A stretch of 32,135 nucleotides of DNA, taken from positions 1 through 32,135 of the IMG/VR virus record IMGVR_UViG_3300037755_000538, one strand, 5' to 3'. The notes under the pieces are model-generated. The model was not told where the DNA came from, made no database searches, and worked only from the letters and a program-made list of their open reading frames with translations. Below, piece after piece: positions 4,067 to 27,553 of the stretch (position 1 is the first letter of the stretch; each line of letters begins with the position of its first letter). Made by a program: the position numbers and the translations under genes. Origin of the DNA: a virus (Duplodnaviria > Caudoviricetes).

Positions 4067-4527
4067 GTTAAATTGGTTCCGTTGAAGAAAAACCAACCTC
4101 AAGTAATGCGGGGGAAAGTTTTGCTGAGGAACCAATTTGGCCGAGTCAGGATTGCACTCCTGACTCGGTTTTTTGTTGCGCGGGCAACCCATCCCGCGTT
4201 CCTCAGCAGCCAACGCCGGGGCGAACACCGCGCGCACGCTGGCCCGGGGAAGAAAACCGGGGGTCCGCGCGGGAAATAAACCAAGCACGGTTGTAAGAGG
4301 GTAGCCGCCAAAATAGAATCCGTCTGGGCGGGTGGAGGTGGTAATGACACCTTCTTTATCGAAGCGACGGCGACAAGTTCGCCGAACCTCGGACCGCCCA
4401 CTTTAGCGAATCAACGACAGAAAATCCAAGGAAAAGTTAAAGTTTTTACTAATGAACCACTATACACTCCCGCATGTTGTGGCTTCACGGAATGCTGCGC
4501 AAAATAACGGCCCGGGACTAAATAGAC

Positions 4528-4571
4528 AAAGCCCACTGTGAGTGATTCACGGCGGGCTTTTCGGGTTTTTT
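4528..4571 (+). terminator. Probable intrinsic terminator
   Basis: AAAGCCC...GGGCTTT hairpin followed by T-rich tail. Confidence 0.5.
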
Positions 4572-4592
4572 GAACATGGGATTCCCTCCCTG

Positions 4593-4633
4593 GTAACGCA
4601 ACCGTAACGCAACGTGCGTTACTATTTCGTTAC
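4593..4633. repeat. Iteron/operator-like cluster
   Basis: GTAACGCAAC at 4593 and 4604, then inverted TGCGTTAC (4615) and CGTTAC (4628). Confidence 0.55.
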
Positions 4634-4697
4634 TCATTTCAATGAGTCGAGATCCCTTCGAGCGACCGGACAAAAATTCCCGATATTTTTCGTGGGC

Positions 4698-4820
4698 TTG
4701 CTTTCAGCGCGGGAGCAGCGAATAATAGGGTTGGCCGTCCAGCCAATCTAAACCGTATTAACCCGCGATTGATTTCATGCCCTTGGACGGCTGCATGAGT
4801 CAGTCGCGGGTTTACTTTTT
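4698..4820 (+). promoter_or_regulatory. Sigma70-like promoter plus structured leader, copy 1
   Basis: TTGCTT-17-AATAAT; hairpin AACCCGCGATTGATTTC...GAGTCAGTCGCGGGTT followed by TACTTT; shared with copy 2 at 9295-9355. Confidence 0.7.
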
Positions 4821-4829
4821 GGGGTCAAA

Positions 4830-5474
4830 ATGGTTCGACGTTTTTTCTACGATACGGAATTTGCCGAGCAACCATCGACGATTGAGCTAATTTCCATCGG
4901 GATCGTCAATGAGATGGGTGAAGGGCGATATTGCATCAACAGTGAATTTGATGAGTCGCTGTGCAATGATTGGGTGAAGGCGAATGTCTTGCCAAAACTC
5001 CCGCCGCGAACCGATCCCGCTTGGTCAACGCGGGCGGAGATTCGCAATGCAATCCTGAACTTTGTGAAGCCTTCCAAGGAATGCCCTGTCGAACTTTGGG
5101 GCTATTATTCCGCTTATGATCATGTCGCGCTGTGCTGGCTTTTTGGCTCAATGATTGACTTGCCTGCTGGGATGCCGATGCTCACCCGAGACCTTAAGCA
5201 ACTCGCGGACAGCCTTGGCAATCCCGATCTTCCACCACAACCGGACGGCCAGCACGACGCGATTGTGGATGCCCAATGGAATTTGCGAGCGTGGCTTTCG
5301 TTGACCCAAGATCCTGTTCTGCAAAACGAGATCGGGCGACTCGCGGCGGGGTTGGAGATGATTACTCAAATCATTCACGGGCCAAGCCGATGGATGCGAA
5401 ATATCGCCTTAGCAGTCTTGCAGGGTGCGGACTGCCGGAAACTTGAGGACGTGGAAAAAATCGGAAAGGTTTGA
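4830..5474 (+). CDS. DEDDh 3'-5' exoribonuclease (Rv2179c/RNase AS-like)
   Basis: FYDTEF, LISIG, WVKANVLPKL, WGYYSAYDHV, HDAIVDA motifs. Confidence 0.88.
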   Translation: MVRRFFYDTEFAEQPSTIELISIGIVNEMGEGRYCINSEFDESLCNDWVKANVLPKLPPRTDPAWSTRAEIRNAILNFVKPSKECPVELWGYYSAYDHVALCWLFGSMIDLPAGMPMLTRDLKQLADSLGNPDLPPQPDGQHDAIVDAQWNLRAWLSLTQDPVLQNEIGRLAAGLEMITQIIHGPSRWMRNIALAVLQGADCRKLEDVEKIGKV

Positions 5475-5479
5475 CATTT

Positions 5480-5572
5480 GGTCCCGAAGCAAGTTGGACT
5501 TGCAGGAACACGGCCTCCCGCCTTGTGCGCACATAACCTAGCGGGTTGTGGGTTCGATTCCCACCGGGACCA
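5480..5572 (+). tRNA. Atypical tRNA-like element, anticodon not assignable
   Basis: Acceptor stem GGTCCCG/CGGGACC plus A, perfect T-arm GTGGG-TTCGATT-CCCAC, D-like hairpin GCAAG-TTGGA-CTTGC; central region non-canonical; no encoded CCA after the discriminator. Confidence 0.6.
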
Positions 5573-6265: not shown

Positions 6266-6375
6266 GTTCCGCGCCGTCATCGGCTGAAAGTTGGGCGTCA
6301 CCCCGAACCCCTTGATTCATAGCGTTTGAACGCGAAAACAGGCGTTTTAGGTGTCGCCCTGAAAGGACGTGAAAT

Positions 6376-6636
6376 ATGCTGGACACATCGGCGATTGAGG
6401 CGAGACTCGAAAGACGGGCCTGCCGGACGCTCATTGAGCGGGACGTTCGGGATTTGATCGATGAAAACGAGCGGTTTCGCAAGGCGATTGAAGCATTCGG
6501 AAACGACGGAATTTTCGATTGGAACGTGCTTGGACGGATTGACGAATTGGAAGCCGAAGTCGAGCGACTCCAGGCGGAGAATAATCGGTTGCAGCGGCTC
6601 ATTCATTTCGCGCAGGAACGGGCGTTGGGCGGGTGA
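6376..6636 (+). CDS. Hypothetical coiled-coil phage protein
   Basis: AAGGA RBS; IDELEAEVERLQAEN heptads. Confidence 0.65.
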   Translation: MLDTSAIEARLERRACRTLIERDVRDLIDENERFRKAIEAFGNDGIFDWNVLGRIDELEAEVERLQAENNRLQRLIHFAQERALGG

Positions 6637-9232: not shown

Positions 9233-9355
9233 TTGACTTTCCCCTTACAGCCCGTGGATAATTCTAGTGCCTTTACCACGCAACCTAAAGATCCAACCCG
9301 CGATTGATTTCCCGAACTGTGGTAAGGGCAGGGGAGTCAGTCGCGGGTTTACTTT
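9233..9355 (+). promoter_or_regulatory. Sigma70-like promoter plus structured leader, copy 2
   Basis: TTGACT-18-GATAAT; hairpin arms identical to those at 4760-4818. Confidence 0.7.
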
Positions 9356-11963: not shown

Positions 11964-12713
11964 TTACCCCACAGTAAGAGCGTTTGTGTTGATGCCCGTT
12001 GGCACAGTATCAACAGCGCCTACAGCCTCACTGGTCTTGAGTGTTGATGTGAATTTGCCGCTTTGTAGATATAGCTTGTTGGCGGAACCACCAACCCAAG
12101 GTGTGTTGTTTCCGTCCCACGAGATGCCTCGTGGCAACGTATCAATTGGCCCGATTGCCTCACTGGTTTTGATCGTCGATGAAAATTGGCCGCTCTGGAG
12201 GTACAACTTGTCATCAGTGCTGCCAATCCAGGGCGTGTCCGTGCCATCCCATGAGACGCCCTGTCCGATGGTGTCAATTGAATTGACGCTCTCACTGGTT
12301 TTGATCGTCGATGAAAATTGGCCGCTCACAAGTTTTAGAAATGTCTCTGCTGGAAAACCAATAGCGCCAACAACCGGGGTATCTGTCCCGTCCCATGAAA
12401 TGCCTCGCACGCCAGAAAGGTTTATGACCTGGCTGGTTTTAAGCGTTGACGAGAACTGGCCGCTTTGGAGGTAAATCCTATTCAACTCAGGAAAGTTATT
12501 AGACCAAGGAGTATTTGTTCCATCCCAGGATATGTCTTCGGGTGAAGCAACCACAGTACCAAGACTGGTTTTGATCGTTGACGAGAACTGGCCGCTCGTG
12601 AGATAGAACTTATTAGCTTGGTCGCCAATCCAGGGCGTGTCTGCGTCCACAGGGCGAGCCAGTAGGATCTGAAACCCATAATCGCAACAACCGTTGTAAG
12701 AATCCCAACTCAT
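11964..12713 (-). CDS. Repeat protein with five ~40-aa units (possible beta-propeller or receptor-binding protein)
   Basis: Repeated ISWDGTxTPW...KLYLQSGQFSSTIKTS; ATG 12713 overlaps the upstream TGA. Confidence 0.75.
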   Translation of the reverse strand: MSWDSYNGCCDYGFQILLARPVDADTPWIGDQANKFYLTSGQFSSTIKTSLGTVVASPEDISWDGTNTPWSNNFPELNRIYLQSGQFSSTLKTSQVINLSGVRGISWDGTDTPVVGAIGFPAETFLKLVSGQFSSTIKTSESVNSIDTIGQGVSWDGTDTPWIGSTDDKLYLQSGQFSSTIKTSEAIGPIDTLPRGISWDGNNTPWVGGSANKLYLQSGKFTSTLKTSEAVGAVDTVPTGINTNALTVG

Positions 12714-13624
12714 GGCGCTACGCTCCCATCTTTCGGATAACCTGGCGTCCAACGGGATAGTTGGACGCTCACGCCAGACCCGCCCGTCAGCGCGGCGAAG
12801 TCCAGTAAGGGGCGGGGAATCTCATGCTTGGCTAAATCGCCGATGAACTCGATCACAATATCGGCATCCGGGAACGGCCCGCCAGCCACGTCCACATCGC
12901 CGCTGGCAATGTTGGTATGGGTCTCAAGTTCGGTTTCGACTTCGGCTGCCGTCATATCGAAATCAAACGTCAGCGTGTCCGTGGTTCCTAGCACGTTCAG
13001 ATCCACATCGAACGTGCCGCCCGTGGGAGTGCCGCCGATGGTGATGGCCCATTTTTCGTTGCGTGGACTGCATCCGTTACTCAACCGCACCAGCGCCCAG
13101 CGAACATCCTCCCCCTCCCCCTCTTCGTCCGGTCCTAGCCACAGGATATGCGCCGAGCCGGAACCCGCGGTCTTTAACCGCCCAGTTTCCCCCTCTTCAA
13201 TGTCCGCGAACTCGTGGGCCTCATCATTTACCAGCACGCGCACCCAAACCTGCCCGCTAACAACCGCCGGAACCACCTCGTTGACTTTCGCCGGCTTAAT
13301 CAAGACCGCGAATTTTCCGGTGTGATCCGCTTCGGTGGGTTCCAATCCGTTAAAAACAGGACGCTCGAAAATGACGGAAGGCCGGTCATCGGGAGTAATC
13401 GCAATCGCGCCCAAGCCGACCACCGCATGAGCCAGATTCAAGACGCCGCCCGTGGCGTTTTTCACCCACACTAATCCGCGAGGCTGATCTGAACCTCTTG
13501 CCAACTCGGCGGATTGCCCGGAGGACTGATTCGCCAGGGCCGAATCAATGAACGCCGCGAACTGCTTGGCGCTTGGCCGGAAGGGTTCGCCCTGCGTTGG
13601 TTTTCGGTAGATGTCCCCCATCAA
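12710..13624 (-). CDS. Probable tail/virion structural protein
   Basis: Position after tape measure; beta-rich; C-terminal GGTPTGGTF...VAGGPFP...IEFIG segment. Confidence 0.65.
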   Translation of the reverse strand: MMGDIYRKPTQGEPFRPSAKQFAAFIDSALANQSSGQSAELARGSDQPRGLVWVKNATGGVLNLAHAVVGLGAIAITPDDRPSVIFERPVFNGLEPTEADHTGKFAVLIKPAKVNEVVPAVVSGQVWVRVLVNDEAHEFADIEEGETGRLKTAGSGSAHILWLGPDEEGEGEDVRWALVRLSNGCSPRNEKWAITIGGTPTGGTFDVDLNVLGTTDTLTFDFDMTAAEVETELETHTNIASGDVDVAGGPFPDADIVIEFIGDLAKHEIPRPLLDFAALTGGSGVSVQLSRWTPGYPKDGSVAP

Positions 13625-23083: not shown

Positions 23084-24588
23084 TGTGAATCCTCATCTTC
23101 CGTGTCGTCGTCGTCCTCATCATCGTCTTCATCATCGGGAGTTGCCGGTTGAGTCGCGGGGGCGGATGGGTATCGTTTTTCGAGTTTGCGCTTTCGCAAC
23201 TCCACCACTGTGATTCCAAGTTCTTTGGCCACTTGCCGCTGCTGATCTTCCCAATCGCGGCCGTTCTTCGCCTGATAATCGGCTTCGCTCATCAAGCCTT
23301 CGGAAATCAAAGTCGTCGCGGCATCGGCTTCTTTTTTGGGATCGACGTGTTCGTGCCCATCCCATCGCCATTCGTGCGAAGGCGGTTCGCGGACATCGCG
23401 GAACTGCGGAAGAAGCACATTCTCAACCCGCCGAGCTTCATCCCACCATGCAAGAAAGATGCGTTCCAAGCACACGGAATCGGTGAAGATGCGATCCACG
23501 CGAATGGATTTGAAATAGGTCTGGTGATCTAAGCGACCGGAGGCGTAGTTGTAGCCCGAAGAATCCCCGGCGGCGATGTTGTACGGCATTCCAAGACACC
23601 GCGCGATTTCATTGATGATCTCGCGCTTGAACATCCCGTAGGTCGTCGCCGGCTGCTCGGCTTTCATCTGGAACGGAGTCCAGCCTTTTGGCAAGGTCAT
23701 CGCCGAGCGGCGTTCCAGGTCGAACAAGTCCAATGGTTCCAGGTCGTCCGGATCTTCCGGGGCGGCTTGCGTATGAAGTAAAATCGCCAGGTCCGCTGCT
23801 GTCTCCGCCGCCGCGATCACCGCCAGCGTGTACCGCCGGAGTTGAGAATAGAGTGGCAGGGCCGGCATGATTTCCGGTATTCCCCGCTGTTGACCGGGCC
23901 GCTCGGGGCGATAGTAATGGATCATGTTTCGCGCGGGAATGGTGTCGTAGTCCCCCACGAAATTGATGAACGTACCCAAGTCGCCGGGATGCTGCTTCAA
24001 GAGCGTGTAGGCCAGCGGGTTGCCGAAATCATCGTAGATAATCCCGTCCGACATATTGGGATCGGTGAGACTTACCCACGGGCGGGCCACCTGATCGGCT
24101 TCGTAAAGTTTCAGGTCGAGTTTGACGGGATTTCTCAGCATTCCATTGGTCGTCAAGAGCGCGAACGATTCCCCATCCACGGTGCGGGCAATCCGCATGA
24201 TGGCGAGCTTCTGGCCGAGGCCCACAGCTTGCGACCATTTCCAAAATTCCGTTTCGATTTGGGTGTCAGTATCGTTATCGCCGCTTTGCATTTGAAGCTG
24301 CGGACCAGTGCCGATCACGTCACAGGCTAGCGTGCGGACCATGCCGGCGGCGTAGCTGTTGTTCGCAACTTCATAGCGGGCACGATTGCGAAGTACGCGG
24401 CGAATGTCGGGGGCGTTGGCCGCGGCTGCCGAGAGCGAATCGGATTCCGCCCAATGGCGTTCATTGTCGCGGACGGTTTGGGCCGCATCATATCTTGCTC
24501 GAATCCGCCGGGAGACCGTCTGTCGAAGCGAATCCCTGCCGGATTCCTTCTTAATTGGCGATCCCTTGTGGTCGAGTAATTGCGTCAT
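23080..24588 (-). CDS. Portal protein, lambda family
   Basis: ARYDAA, LRNRARYEVANNSY, RPGQQRGIP, NYASGRLD, HVDPKKEA. Confidence 0.93.
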   Translation of the reverse strand: MTQLLDHKGSPIKKESGRDSLRQTVSRRIRARYDAAQTVRDNERHWAESDSLSAAAANAPDIRRVLRNRARYEVANNSYAAGMVRTLACDVIGTGPQLQMQSGDNDTDTQIETEFWKWSQAVGLGQKLAIMRIARTVDGESFALLTTNGMLRNPVKLDLKLYEADQVARPWVSLTDPNMSDGIIYDDFGNPLAYTLLKQHPGDLGTFINFVGDYDTIPARNMIHYYRPERPGQQRGIPEIMPALPLYSQLRRYTLAVIAAAETAADLAILLHTQAAPEDPDDLEPLDLFDLERRSAMTLPKGWTPFQMKAEQPATTYGMFKREIINEIARCLGMPYNIAAGDSSGYNYASGRLDHQTYFKSIRVDRIFTDSVCLERIFLAWWDEARRVENVLLPQFRDVREPPSHEWRWDGHEHVDPKKEADAATTLISEGLMSEADYQAKNGRDWEDQQRQVAKELGITVVELRKRKLEKRYPSAPATQPATPDDEDDDEDDDDTEDEDSQ

Positions 24589-24788
24589 CCGAGGGCTCCG
24601 CCGGGGCGGATTCTTGCGATTCGCACGGGAAGTTTTCGGCTCTTCGAGATGTCTGCTTCTCGCAGGTGATTCAATGCGTCGATTTGATCTTTTAGGCTGT
24701 GTTGGCTAACGGTTAAGCCATCGGTCGAGACTTGCTTGGGTCCGCCGGCGTTTTCGCGAATGGCATCAGTGAGATCTTCAAGCGGCAT
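24585..24788 (-). CDS. Head completion/adaptor protein (gpW-like)
   Basis: Small gene coupled to the portal (ATGA overlap); GPKQVSTDGLTVSQHSLKDQI. Confidence 0.7.
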   Translation of the reverse strand: MPLEDLTDAIRENAGGPKQVSTDGLTVSQHSLKDQIDALNHLREADISKSRKLPVRIARIRPGGALG

Positions 24789-24952: not shown

Positions 24953-24990
24953 AAAACAAAAATGCCGTTGCACAAATAATGTGCAACGGC
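24953..24990 (-). terminator. Intrinsic terminator closing the Cas12f-like cassette
   Basis: Perfect 11-bp stem GCCGTTGCACA/TGTGCAACGGC, then T-rich tail on minus strand. Confidence 0.7.
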
Positions 24991-25042
24991 TAGATCAATG
25001 CCGTTGTGACCCGCCCAGGCGGAGCCCTCGGATAAACCATGC

Positions 25043-25063
25043 CGCTCGCAATCCTCACACGCT
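25043..25063. repeat. 21-bp repeat, copy 2 (CGCTCGCAATCCTCACACGCT)
   Basis: 20/21 identical to 26565-26585; core is the reverse complement of 27104-27114. Confidence 0.85.
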
Positions 25064-25066
25064 TAC

Positions 25067-25381
25067 TTAGCTGTTGTGACCTTGGGGCTCGCAACCCCTA
25101 GTCACAACTCGCTTTAGTCGGCGGCTTGCGAGAGGTCTAGTTTGCTTAGCCCCCCTGCCGCGGTTCCGCCGGAGCACGATTGACGTAACCTCCGTCTCTC
25201 GGGAGATTTCGATGTCACGAGCACTGACGCGGATTTCCGAGTCACCGCAGCCCTCGCACGCATACCGTCGGCACTGGCCACACAGCGGCTGCCTCCCTTC
25301 GCGAATCATCTGCAGGAACCGCGATTTCGTCGGAATCTTGACCGGTTTCTCGCAGATGGCGCAGTCGATTTCACGCAGCAT
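25067..25381 (-). CDS. Possible small zinc-ribbon protein; 3' half may instead be ncRNA
   Basis: CAIC, CGQC, CEGC; overlaps the Cas12f-like stop; GGAG RBS. Confidence 0.45.
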   Translation of the reverse strand: MLREIDCAICEKPVKIPTKSRFLQMIREGRQPLCGQCRRYACEGCGDSEIRVSARDIEISRETEVTSIVLRRNRGRGAKQTRPLASRRLKRVVTRGCEPQGHNS

Positions 25382-26537
25382 CTTTCTTCTCCTTTTCGGC
25401 TTTCACGATTTCTCCGATCTTGAGTTTTTGAATCCTCAGTTCGATGCCGTGTTTCGCCAGTGAGTTTTTCAGGTCGCCAACGAATCGTGTCCAATCCCAG
25501 GTAACACCCGAACGCTCAAACCAGCATTTGGTTTTGGCCGGCCCGGTCGGTTCGCGGAACAGAACAACGCCGGCCTCTTGCCGCTTGGCCTGATTCACCA
25601 CATCCTTGATCATCCGCCGGCGGACTTCATTGACGATGTTCCGTAGTTGCTTCCGGCGAAGCATCACGGCGGCATCAATCTTCTTTCGGCCATGACCTGC
25701 TCCGTTCCGCTGTCGATAACGCCAGCCAATGGCTTTGATCATCGCTTCAATGCGGGCCGTCTGACGCAACAAATAGCGGCCATCCCCAATGAACCACGGG
25801 AGGGGGCGGGACTCCGAGACTATCTGGAAAGGCCGCTCCGGGTCTCCATCCACGCTGGGAATCACCGGGGAAAGCGTCACGATGATTTCCGGGTTGGCTT
25901 CCGGCTGCTCGAATGCCACCGGCAAAAACCAATACCACTCGCCATCCTTTTCGAGCAACTTGCTATCTGCCAGCTTTCGTTTTTCCTGTGAAAGTTCCAA
26001 CAAAATGCGCTTAAAACTCGGGGGCATGTCCCGTAAGGAAATCGTGAGAATCAGAGGTTCCGCCCCGCGCAACAGGCGGGAGACTGTGAGGTTGGATTCA
26101 TCGCCCATCTCCACGGTGCACTGCTTGTTGTGGAGAGGGATTTCCGTAGCCGTGAAAAACGGAGGCCGATCCTCATAGGACAGAATCGCGTCCTTGCGTT
26201 TTGCCCGCCGTCCCTCAACTTCCATTCCCCGCCGCCAGTCTACCTTGCCATTCAGGTAAGCTCCGACTTGTTTGGCGATCATCGAGACGGCAAAGGTTCC
26301 GAGTTCCGGGGCCTTTTCAATGACCGCGTGATAGAGCTTGGTCGATTCGCTCTTGGGCTTGTCTCCGTGCTTGGACTTAATCAGACGCTTGGATTGCCTT
26401 TCGGTTTCCGGCATTCCCCGCTGACGGAGCAGCCAGTTTTCCGCCGCTACATTGCGGGCCTTGCGGCATAGGTCCGCGATGGCTTGCAGGTCCGCTTCGC
26501 TGGCTAGCTTGAACTTTAGGACGATGAAGGATTTCAT
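25371..26537 (-). CDS. Cas12f/TnpB-like protein, predicted nuclease-dead and C-terminally truncated (388 aa)
   Basis: Collinear with Cas12f1 by eye: AILSYEDRPPFF, ADSKLLEKDGEWYWFLPVAFE, GAGHGRKK, DVVNQAKRQEAGVVLFRE, WDWTRFVGDLKNSLAKHGI; RuvC-I GIDLG replaced by VTLSP; no zinc finger or RuvC-III; AGGAG RBS. Confidence 0.78.
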   Translation of the reverse strand: MKSFIVLKFKLASEADLQAIADLCRKARNVAAENWLLRQRGMPETERQSKRLIKSKHGDKPKSESTKLYHAVIEKAPELGTFAVSMIAKQVGAYLNGKVDWRRGMEVEGRRAKRKDAILSYEDRPPFFTATEIPLHNKQCTVEMGDESNLTVSRLLRGAEPLILTISLRDMPPSFKRILLELSQEKRKLADSKLLEKDGEWYWFLPVAFEQPEANPEIIVTLSPVIPSVDGDPERPFQIVSESRPLPWFIGDGRYLLRQTARIEAMIKAIGWRYRQRNGAGHGRKKIDAAVMLRRKQLRNIVNEVRRRMIKDVVNQAKRQEAGVVLFREPTGPAKTKCWFERSGVTWDWTRFVGDLKNSLAKHGIELRIQKLKIGEIVKAEKEKKDAA

Positions 26538-26564
26538 TGTTCTCCTTTTCTTCACGCGCTGGCA

Positions 26565-26585
26565 CGCTCGCCATCCTCACACGCT
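26565..26585. repeat. 21-bp repeat, copy 1 (CGCTCGCCATCCTCACACGCT)
   Basis: Intergenic, just upstream of the Cas12f-like RBS. Confidence 0.85.
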
Positions 26586-26590
26586 CGTGA

Positions 26591-27046
26591 TCAAACCAGT
26601 TCCGCAACCCGGCCCGCTCGCCCGAGCTTGGTCAGGGTCTGGTCATGCCGGGTTCGCAGTTCGGCAAGCTCCGCTTCCAGTATCTCAACCTTGACCTCCA
26701 GTTCCTTGGCGTGAGCCTTCCAATTGATCTTTTCTTTCGCTTCGGTGTTCTTCGCCGGGGCAGAAAGATCGATCATGGCCCAGATGTTGTGCGAGTATTC
26801 GTCCCACGTCGCCTTGGTTGGATTCTTGCGGTAGGCCCGCAGCATGTTCGCGAGCGACGGCTTGCCGCCGAAGTGGGCAAAGCCGGTGGCCTCCAGATGT
26901 TCCACCAGTGCTGTCTGCCCGCCGTACTCTTCACAGTATTCCGGATCGTCCGCGATCTCGGACGCCAACTTGAGCATGTCGAACAGGTTCGTTCGTGCCT
27001 TCTTGCCGAGCTTCTTCAATTCGGCGTGTTTTTGTTTCGAGTCCAT
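26591..27046 (-). CDS. Hypothetical protein with C-terminal coiled coil
   Basis: AAGGA RBS; co-oriented between the ncRNA and the Cas12f-like gene. Confidence 0.75.
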   Translation of the reverse strand: MDSKQKHAELKKLGKKARTNLFDMLKLASEIADDPEYCEEYGGQTALVEHLEATGFAHFGGKPSLANMLRAYRKNPTKATWDEYSHNIWAMIDLSAPAKNTEAKEKINWKAHAKELEVKVEILEAELAELRTRHDQTLTKLGRAGRVAELV

Positions 27047-27066
27047 TGCTTGATCCTTTCGAGTTC

Positions 27067-27268
27067 AAAAAAAAGAGAAACCGCCCGGAATGAGACTGTC
27101 GGCGCGTGTGAGGACTCGAACGCCCTGCCTTCCGCGAGCGGAAAGCGCATCGTTCGCTTATGGGTTTCGCCGAGATGGCCAAAAAGCACGTTGGGCTTTT
27201 CAGATGCTCGGCATTCGGGCTGCGAGTGCCCGCAAGCTCCAACCGACAGTCTCATTCCGGGCGGTTTC
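27067..27268 (-). ncRNA. Candidate tracrRNA/omegaRNA-like guide scaffold
   Basis: Perfect 26-bp inverted repeat (27077-27102/27243-27268) enclosing several hairpins, then a U-tract; 3' segment complementary to the two 21-bp repeats. Confidence 0.72.
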
Positions 27269-27289: not shown

Positions 27290-27340
27290 GTTATACTTGT
27301 ACGGAATAATAGACCGAATGTCAATGATTTTCCCGTACAA
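27290..27340. promoter_or_regulatory. Divergent promoter region with inverted operator-like repeat
   Basis: Minus-strand TTGACA at 27324-27319; TTGTACGG (27297-27304) and CCGTACAA (27333-27340); AT-rich. Confidence 0.55.
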
Positions 27341-27361
27341 ATAAAATAATGCAGGAAAAAC

Positions 27362-27553
27362 GTGCCGAAAAAGAGATCTAAGAAAAAATCGCGGGGGAGA
27401 CCGCCGGTCCCAAGGGCTGAACGGCGGGACGAATCCATTCGGATCGCGCTAACGATGAATGAAAAGCGAAAGATCGAATCGGCAGCAAAAGCCGCCGGCC
27501 TGTCGATTTCGGATTACGGGCGAAAACTTCTGTTGGAAAATACCGTTCATTGA
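27362..27553 (+). CDS. Ribbon-helix-helix regulator with RGRP motif
   Basis: RGRPP...SIRIALTMNEKRKIESAAKAAGLSISDYGRKLLL. Confidence 0.75.
   Translation: MPKKRSKKKSRGRPPVPRAERRDESIRIALTMNEKRKIESAAKAAGLSISDYGRKLLLENTVH

Follow-up and report, generated by a model that had tools for sequence, protein, structure and literature searches.

Repeats of a phage-borne cassette with a predicted tracrRNA and a Cas12f1-like effector probably lacking nuclease activity

Organization of the locus

The window, that is, the whole stretch of DNA analysed here, is an entire virus record of 32 kb (32,135 nucleotides) with lambda-like terminase, portal, and capsid genes, as well as an integrase and a Dam methylase. 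The host is presumably a Planctomycete, judging from a prepilin-type N-methylation gene and from an Atlas cluster label based on six members. The repeats considered here lie, along with a gene cassette, inside an insert of about 5 kb that separates the terminase gene from the head-completion gene; in two related phages these genes are found side by side. From its sequence, the cassette is read as comprising a tracrRNA, accessory gene A, a nuclease-dead Cas12f1-like protein, accessory gene B, a leader, and an array. The features of the locus are as follows.

24587-24609, plus strand: own-genome site resembling the spacer (spacer nt 12-34, 22/23)
24964-24990, minus strand: terminator-like hairpin at the end of the array
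24999-25010, minus strand: truncated second repeat, which begins with the same 9 nt as the repeat
25011-25044, minus strand: spacer 1, 34 nt, likely derived from the head-completion/portal gene junction of a related phage
25045-25080, minus strand: full 36-nt leader-proximal CRISPR repeat that includes copy 1, assigned from leader phase
25067-25381, minus strand: accessory gene B, encoding a 104-aa C4 zinc-finger protein; the 3' half of the gene shares its DNA with the CRISPR leader, and its stop lies within the first repeat
25251-25261, minus strand: degenerate repeat-like stretch inside gene B, probably a coding coincidence
25371-26540, minus strand: predicted nuclease-dead Cas12f1-like effector of about 388 aa, from profile, structure match, and family alignment
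26567-26585, minus strand: copy 2, a lone 3' half repeat lying 5 nt past the gene A stop and 19 nt before the AAGGAG of the effector
26591-27046, minus strand: accessory gene A, 151 aa, with a helical N-domain and a coiled coil; weak DUF3102-like lead
27077-27268, minus strand: predicted tracrRNA with a core of about 140 nt closed by a perfect 26-bp terminal stem, with a U tract behind (z -8.4)
27104-27116, minus strand: 3' anti-repeat, 13 bp with the repeat
27220-27226, minus strand: 5' anti-repeat segment, pairing with the last 7 nt of the repeat

Identity and extent of the repeats

A sequence-only reading of the window had described two dispersed 21-bp repeats, and both were found where it placed them: copy 1 (25043-25063) and copy 2 (26565-26585) are identical at 20 of 21 positions. 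The 11-nt core has three exact matches in the window, two on the plus strand and a third which, as also described earlier, is inverted at 27104-27114. Markov simulations of the window produced a direct pair of this quality (20/21) in 3 of 40 runs. In a duplex scan pairing every 16-mer, from both strands of the window, with the anti-repeat, only the complement of the anti-repeat itself ranked above the two copies, which scored -25.3 and -24.8 kcal/mol against -21.8 for the best unrelated site. The repeat pair exceeds chance once its pairing partner is included, and copies 1 and 2 are almost certainly CRISPR repeats.

The repeats of related loci are about 36 nt long and end in GAG, with the exception of locus L011 (17-18 nt); because the 36-nt repeats all finish in this way, the true repeat ends were placed at 25045 and 26567, the last two bases common to both copies falling within spacers. 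The description as a solo repeat suits copy 2, which stands alone, whereas copy 1 forms the 3' half of the full repeat at 25045-25080. A further degenerate copy, proposed at 25251-25261, is present and comes next after copies 1 and 2 in the duplex scan (-23.1 kcal/mol), although by mismatch count it is at chance level (10 matches with at most two mismatches, vs 8.9 expected). It falls in an insertion within the coding sequence of the zinc-finger ORF, found also in P0083, L007, and L019, and probably represents a coding coincidence.

The upstream RNA and its pairing with the repeat

The tracrRNA motif and its closing stem are also present in relatives. Pairing was compared in the eight loci, the window among them, that have both a repeat and the upstream RNA. 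The best pairing partner of the repeat was in every case (8/8) the anti-repeat of its own locus, and a second pairing, joining the last 5-7 nt of the repeat to a segment near the 5' end of the RNA, was likewise found in all eight, with compensatory changes in L003 and L011. Together, these two results argue that the upstream RNA is a tracrRNA, as predicted, and they argue against the second model of the sequence-only reading, in which this RNA is a natural single guide.

The first model of that reading, a minus-strand crRNA repeat pairing over 13 bp with the anti-repeat, is borne out by the covariation that it had suggested looking for in related phages, and which extends over two segments. 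It had missed the second pairing (27220-27226), and its expectation of one guide per repeat is seen for copy 1 only. The anti-repeat had further been taken for the 3' end of the RNA; instead, one arm of the perfect 26-bp terminal stem and the U tract come after it.

The effector and the accessory genes

Profile searches with the effector returned Cas12f entries only (E 1e-8 to 7e-7), and its best matches in both sequence and structure were AsCas12f1/OsCas12f and dCas12f. The structure model (pLDDT 93.6) had AsCas12f1 as its top Foldseek match (E 8e-17, TM about 0.6). The family has 72 members, counting the one in the window, which share 38-73% identity and are nearly all metagenomic. The RuvC-I Asp is absent from all 72, as are the zinc finger and RuvC-III, and the RuvC-II Glu is retained in 61. 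At the column of the RuvC-I Asp, the residues V, T, Q, I, K, and A account for 68 of the 72 sequences, and the Pro just before it is kept in 71. Since AsCas12f1 requires its catalytic residues D225, E324, and D401 (10.1101/2023.07.03.547593), the effector can safely be regarded as nuclease-dead. No Pfam, NCBIfam, or PHROG family was found for the effector or for accessory genes A and B.

Gene A is present in the seven related loci of sufficient length (7/7); its fold, a single-sequence model with a pLDDT of 69, gave no structural match. The zinc-finger ORF of gene B was seen in every locus (14/14). Its frame contains a single stop over the leader region, compared with 18 and 24 in the remaining frames, a bias by which this DNA seems to act as gene B coding sequence and CRISPR leader at once. 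In the window and in related loci, this overlap between leader and zinc-finger gene shows both fixed spacing and fixed codons. Inspection of the 25067-25230 region by eye also suggests a putative IHF-like core. An origin of gene B as a split-off zinc finger of Cas12f is not supported: the cysteine spacing differs, and weak treble-clef leads only were obtained.

Related loci and phage records

Scans gave 19 related loci, which became 13 distinct ones once duplicates were merged. Arrays are present in 11 of these; the other two are truncated by contig ends, L009 with one repeat at the end and L013 short of the array. A scan for the tracrRNA motif returned 20 stretches, three with an effector, each already among the known loci, and a scan for the accessory genes gave zero new loci. 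Genome contigs yielded a single match, which was spurious, and GenBank phages yielded none.

Several loci have arrangements of their own. L005 carries two arrays (4405-4950 and 6345-6452) with differing repeat variants on either side of the effector, as well as a distant solo repeat like the second variant. In L011 (1340-2000, 7213-7450, and 7899-8125), many 17-18-nt half repeats form several mini arrays and occupy gene junctions, with a period of about 35; some of its spacers are duplicated, and a change in the repeat end is compensated in the tracrRNA. In L003 (3332-8714), a RecD2-like gene has its N-terminal half (OB, HHH) on one side of the cassette and its C-terminal half (helicase) on the other, which suggests either a mobile cassette or a split gene.

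Five phage records were compared, four of which are 63-70% complete. Cas1, sigma-70 region 2, and the rve domain were found in none of the five, with positive controls detected, and given the incomplete records these absences are not final. The control of the sigma-factor search was detected in 10 of 14, and rpoE was found beside the effector in none of the five records. The Mu C-domain was likewise found in 0/5, its control also blank, whereas the rve search (0/5) had a working control; for both, the records are partly incomplete.

Copy 1 and spacer 1

By its sequence context, copy 1 reads as a normal leader-repeat-spacer unit with one spacer. Leader motifs are located 52 and 143 nt upstream of the repeat, the corresponding distances in relatives being 51/141 (n = 7) and 52/142 (n = 1), and the phase is kept in 9 of 9.

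Spacer 1 matches the head-gene junction of its own phage at 25 of 34 positions, the maximum among shuffles being 23. The lone mismatch between spacer nt 12-34 and 24587-24609 is a synonymous third position, while the first 11 nt, the seed, match this site at three positions only. Read on the coding strand, these unmatched 11 nt place a stop at the same position as in the own gene and, 3 nt further on, an ATG. Spacer 5 of L003 resembles the terminase of its own phage in a similar way (30/39 nt, 11/13 residues, 47 bits vs shuffle maxima of 33 or less), again with a mismatched seed. Because both spacers are near-matches with mismatched seeds, capture from related phages, with escape via the seed, is inferred, and spacer 1 was likely acquired from a related phage. 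Against own genomes, a clear signature of this kind was seen in 2 of 38 guides, with a marginal third case, L006 spacer 7; at the protein level it was seen in 1 of 57. With regard to the T-rich PAM of type V-F1, one homologous site is flanked by TTT.

Protospacer searches gave no convincing true protospacer, so that target and PAM are deduced indirectly. Spacer 1 had 0 matches in viral contigs; among the contigs of one run, none lay over it; and the codon-degenerate pattern of its junction gave four matches, all unrelated. L003 spacer 5 matched its own array only. For L003 spacer 1, two independent seed matches of 18-20 nt with a poor distal part were near chance for the collection searched. 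A likeness of L003 spacer 2 to the capsid end of the window phage was discarded, as it did not rise above shuffles. For solo and short guides, a seed scan of their own records gave no match longer than 10 nt.

Copy 2

In copy 2, the match is limited to the 3' 19 nt of the repeat, of which 12 bp and 5 bp of pairing are retained. It lies where L005 and L006 carry whole arrays, immediately before the effector, and its trailing sequence resembles, by eye, the one after the last repeat of L005. This position and this trailing sequence favour a remnant, and copy 2 most likely derives by decay from an array that formerly preceded the effector. The 20-mer downstream of it has no target in the window or in the promoter region; the best seed of this guide against the cas promoter is 6 nt, equalled by 47 of 500 random regions. 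The idea of one guide per dispersed repeat thus holds for the leader-repeat-spacer unit of copy 1, and for copy 2 a target is not demonstrable.

Proposed function and competing explanations

The repeats belong to a phage-borne cassette that probably silences rival phages by binding DNA without cutting it. In such a system, the tracrRNA would be trimmed from its terminal stem and pair with the repeat, and the opening 15-20 bases of the spacer would guide the effector. Once bound, the complex would block transcription where the portal gene of the rival begins, and the own phage would be spared by the differing seed of its own site. Spacers would be inserted by host Cas1-Cas2, a step assigned to the host because cas1 was not found in the five records. 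The least certain part concerns copy 2, which can still pair with the tracrRNA and may be retained as a handle on the effector mRNA. Against rival silencing stand the lack of a true protospacer in the searches, the small share of guides with a clear related-phage signature, and the conservation of genes A and B, which could give the complex another output.

Compatible with rival silencing is a proposal that we hold possible though not probable, in which the solo repeats are selected cis-handles: the tracrRNA and the effector would seize the mRNA at the half repeat and either cleave or mask the ribosome-binding site downstream of it, and feedback on the effector along with control of further phage genes is predicted. 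Five solo half repeats occur in three of the five phage records, vs 0 in 25 simulations, and four of the five are followed within about 50 nt by a ribosome-binding site and a start codon, the downstream genes including a primase-helicase and a protease. The pairing kept by copy 2 and the many short repeats of L011 at gene junctions agree with this. However, the other two records have no solos, position and downstream gene vary among phages, two solos show traces of the 5' half as decayed full repeats would, and neutral remnants also survive in gene junctions. A dual use of the tracrRNA, in which array repeats would give rival-silencing guides, lone half repeats an own-mRNA switch, and A/B an output new to type V, must be considered doubtful.

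It is unlikely that the complex regulates host or own genes under RNA guidance, working through short seeds with A or B as output module, comparable to sigma-E for other dCas12f. Guides of related dCas12f are described as 14-16 nt with a short critical seed (PMC13472631), and the conservation of both accessory genes would suit such a role. Two sites for spacer 1 point the same way: an 11-nt seed match within dam (687-697; 41 of 2000 shuffles) and, preceded by TTT, a 9/12 match at 27367 on the minus strand. The second site lies upstream of the cassette, and its figure of 18 of 5000 shuffles was obtained with a rule set after the site had been seen. Both matches, however, are weak as well as post hoc. 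Loose promoter matches were obtained for 4 of 57 guides of relatives only, with no common flank; moreover, long arrays of unique spacers suit defence, and no sigma factor was found in the five records.

Retention of the 3' part of spacer 1 as an antisense element on the own portal translation start is very improbable, even though the 22/23 complementarity spans the overlap of head-completion stop and portal start, 401 nt downstream on the same strand: the terminator-like hairpin lies between, the 11 unmatched nt spell an alternative stop-start junction, and the L003 parallel falls within coding sequence, where it has no role of this kind. The natural single guide with the copies as its DNA targets is largely refuted and scarcely credible, since its supports, an 11-nt core identical between RNA and copies and a flank (the proposed shared 5' motif) common to the copies, meet with relatives whose arrays of up to 13 full repeats have unique spacers, match their own anti-repeats, and covary with two separate RNA segments, with a flank that is merely the 3' end of the repeat, and with a core that runs into a stem arm and has no free end.

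Relation to known systems

The cassette can be compared with several type V systems. The V-F1 systems (AsCas12f1, OsCas12f, and SpCas12f1) are alike in effector fold and sequence, in 36-nt repeats, and in an array with a leader, and the guide of AsCas12f1 also has two repeat:anti-repeat segments (10.1101/2023.07.03.547593), which here are a predicted pairing. In contrast, the effector of the window is without the catalytic Asp, the zinc finger, and RuvC-III, and the cassette is phage-borne, with two accessory genes and a long terminal stem in the tracrRNA. V-F1 effectors themselves act as an asymmetric homodimer on a single guide.

The dCas12f groups described in PMC13472631 are C-terminally truncated, nuclease-dead Cas12f proteins, as is predicted here. 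One CRISPR-associated cluster without rpoE is located near CRISPR arrays, and its members are proposed as repressors, the example being a Chitinophagaceae genome with an efflux-promoter target (PMC13472631). Compared by description, the cassette of the window differs from this cluster in its occurrence in phages and in its phage-like spacers. The dCas12f-sigmaE system uses a single guide with no tracrRNA and activates, according to the same source (PMC13472631); the present cassette has a separate tracrRNA and arrays, and no adjacent rpoE (0/5 records).

Cas12m (V-M) silences without cleavage between competing mobile elements, as is proposed here, with an effector of another family (PMC11656645). 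Viral mini-arrays similarly carry 1-2 spacers against related viruses and, as that account describes them, borrow the host effector, whereas the phage of the window encodes both effector and tracrRNA (PMC11656645). The repeat of a mini-array is, moreover, identical to that of a host CRISPR; in the window, the repeat has a cognate tracrRNA in the same cassette. CasMu-V (PMC10910872) and V-U43/V-U44 (PMC10691335) are also type V, with RuvC lost or altered, and close to Cas12f1. No transposase was found with the present cassette, in contrast to CasMu-V (rve in 0/5 records, partly incomplete); the present clade may belong among the V-U groups.

A degenerate repeat adjoining the effector gene is also known from CreR/CreA and standalone repeats (10.1101/2023.03.10.532045; 10.1101/2023.03.03.530964), as reported in these sources for types I and V-A. 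Copy 2 differs in having no promoter-matching spacer, in its place on the effector's own mRNA, and in its need for a tracrRNA. As a CreR, copy 2 fails the promoter test and was rejected.

In its proposed action, the cassette is like Cas12m or a viral mini-array, built of Cas12f1 parts; it is neither a V-F1 nuclease nor a sigmaE system. A literature search, mostly of papers open without subscription, found no paper on this clade, and the supplementary sequence sets of PMC10691335 and PMC13472631 may contain it.

The results point to a phage family of Cas12f proteins that is small (about 390 aa), programmed by arrays, and non-cutting by nature; as its tracrRNA and repeat are defined, it can be tested as a miniature CRISPRi module. 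Silencing-based competition, as seen on plasmids with Cas12m and type IV, would be extended to phages that have a class 2 effector of their own. The series from full arrays to half-repeat arrays to solos within one family corresponds to the array-shrinking path proposed for sigma-linked dCas12f. If it is true that the solos act on mRNA, they would constitute a natural case of tracrRNA-dependent mRNA capture.

Additional features of the window

Upstream of the cassette, an imperfect inverted repeat of 20 nt (27291-27346) spans the divergent promoter region and may be an operator for a ribbon-helix-helix protein. Where the divergent ribbon-helix-helix gene (27362-27553) begins, both guides show weak seed matches, on opposite strands, to the same 7 bp (27361-27367). 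Close to the integrase, a perfect 22-bp direct repeat (4797-4818 and 9334-9355; 4.5 kb apart) brackets a block of small genes. A weak tRNA match was obtained at 5480-5572 (Rfam, 29.6 bits), where ARAGORN gave no match. In the tail region, an ORF at 11964-12752 contains five repeat units of 132-138 nt each.
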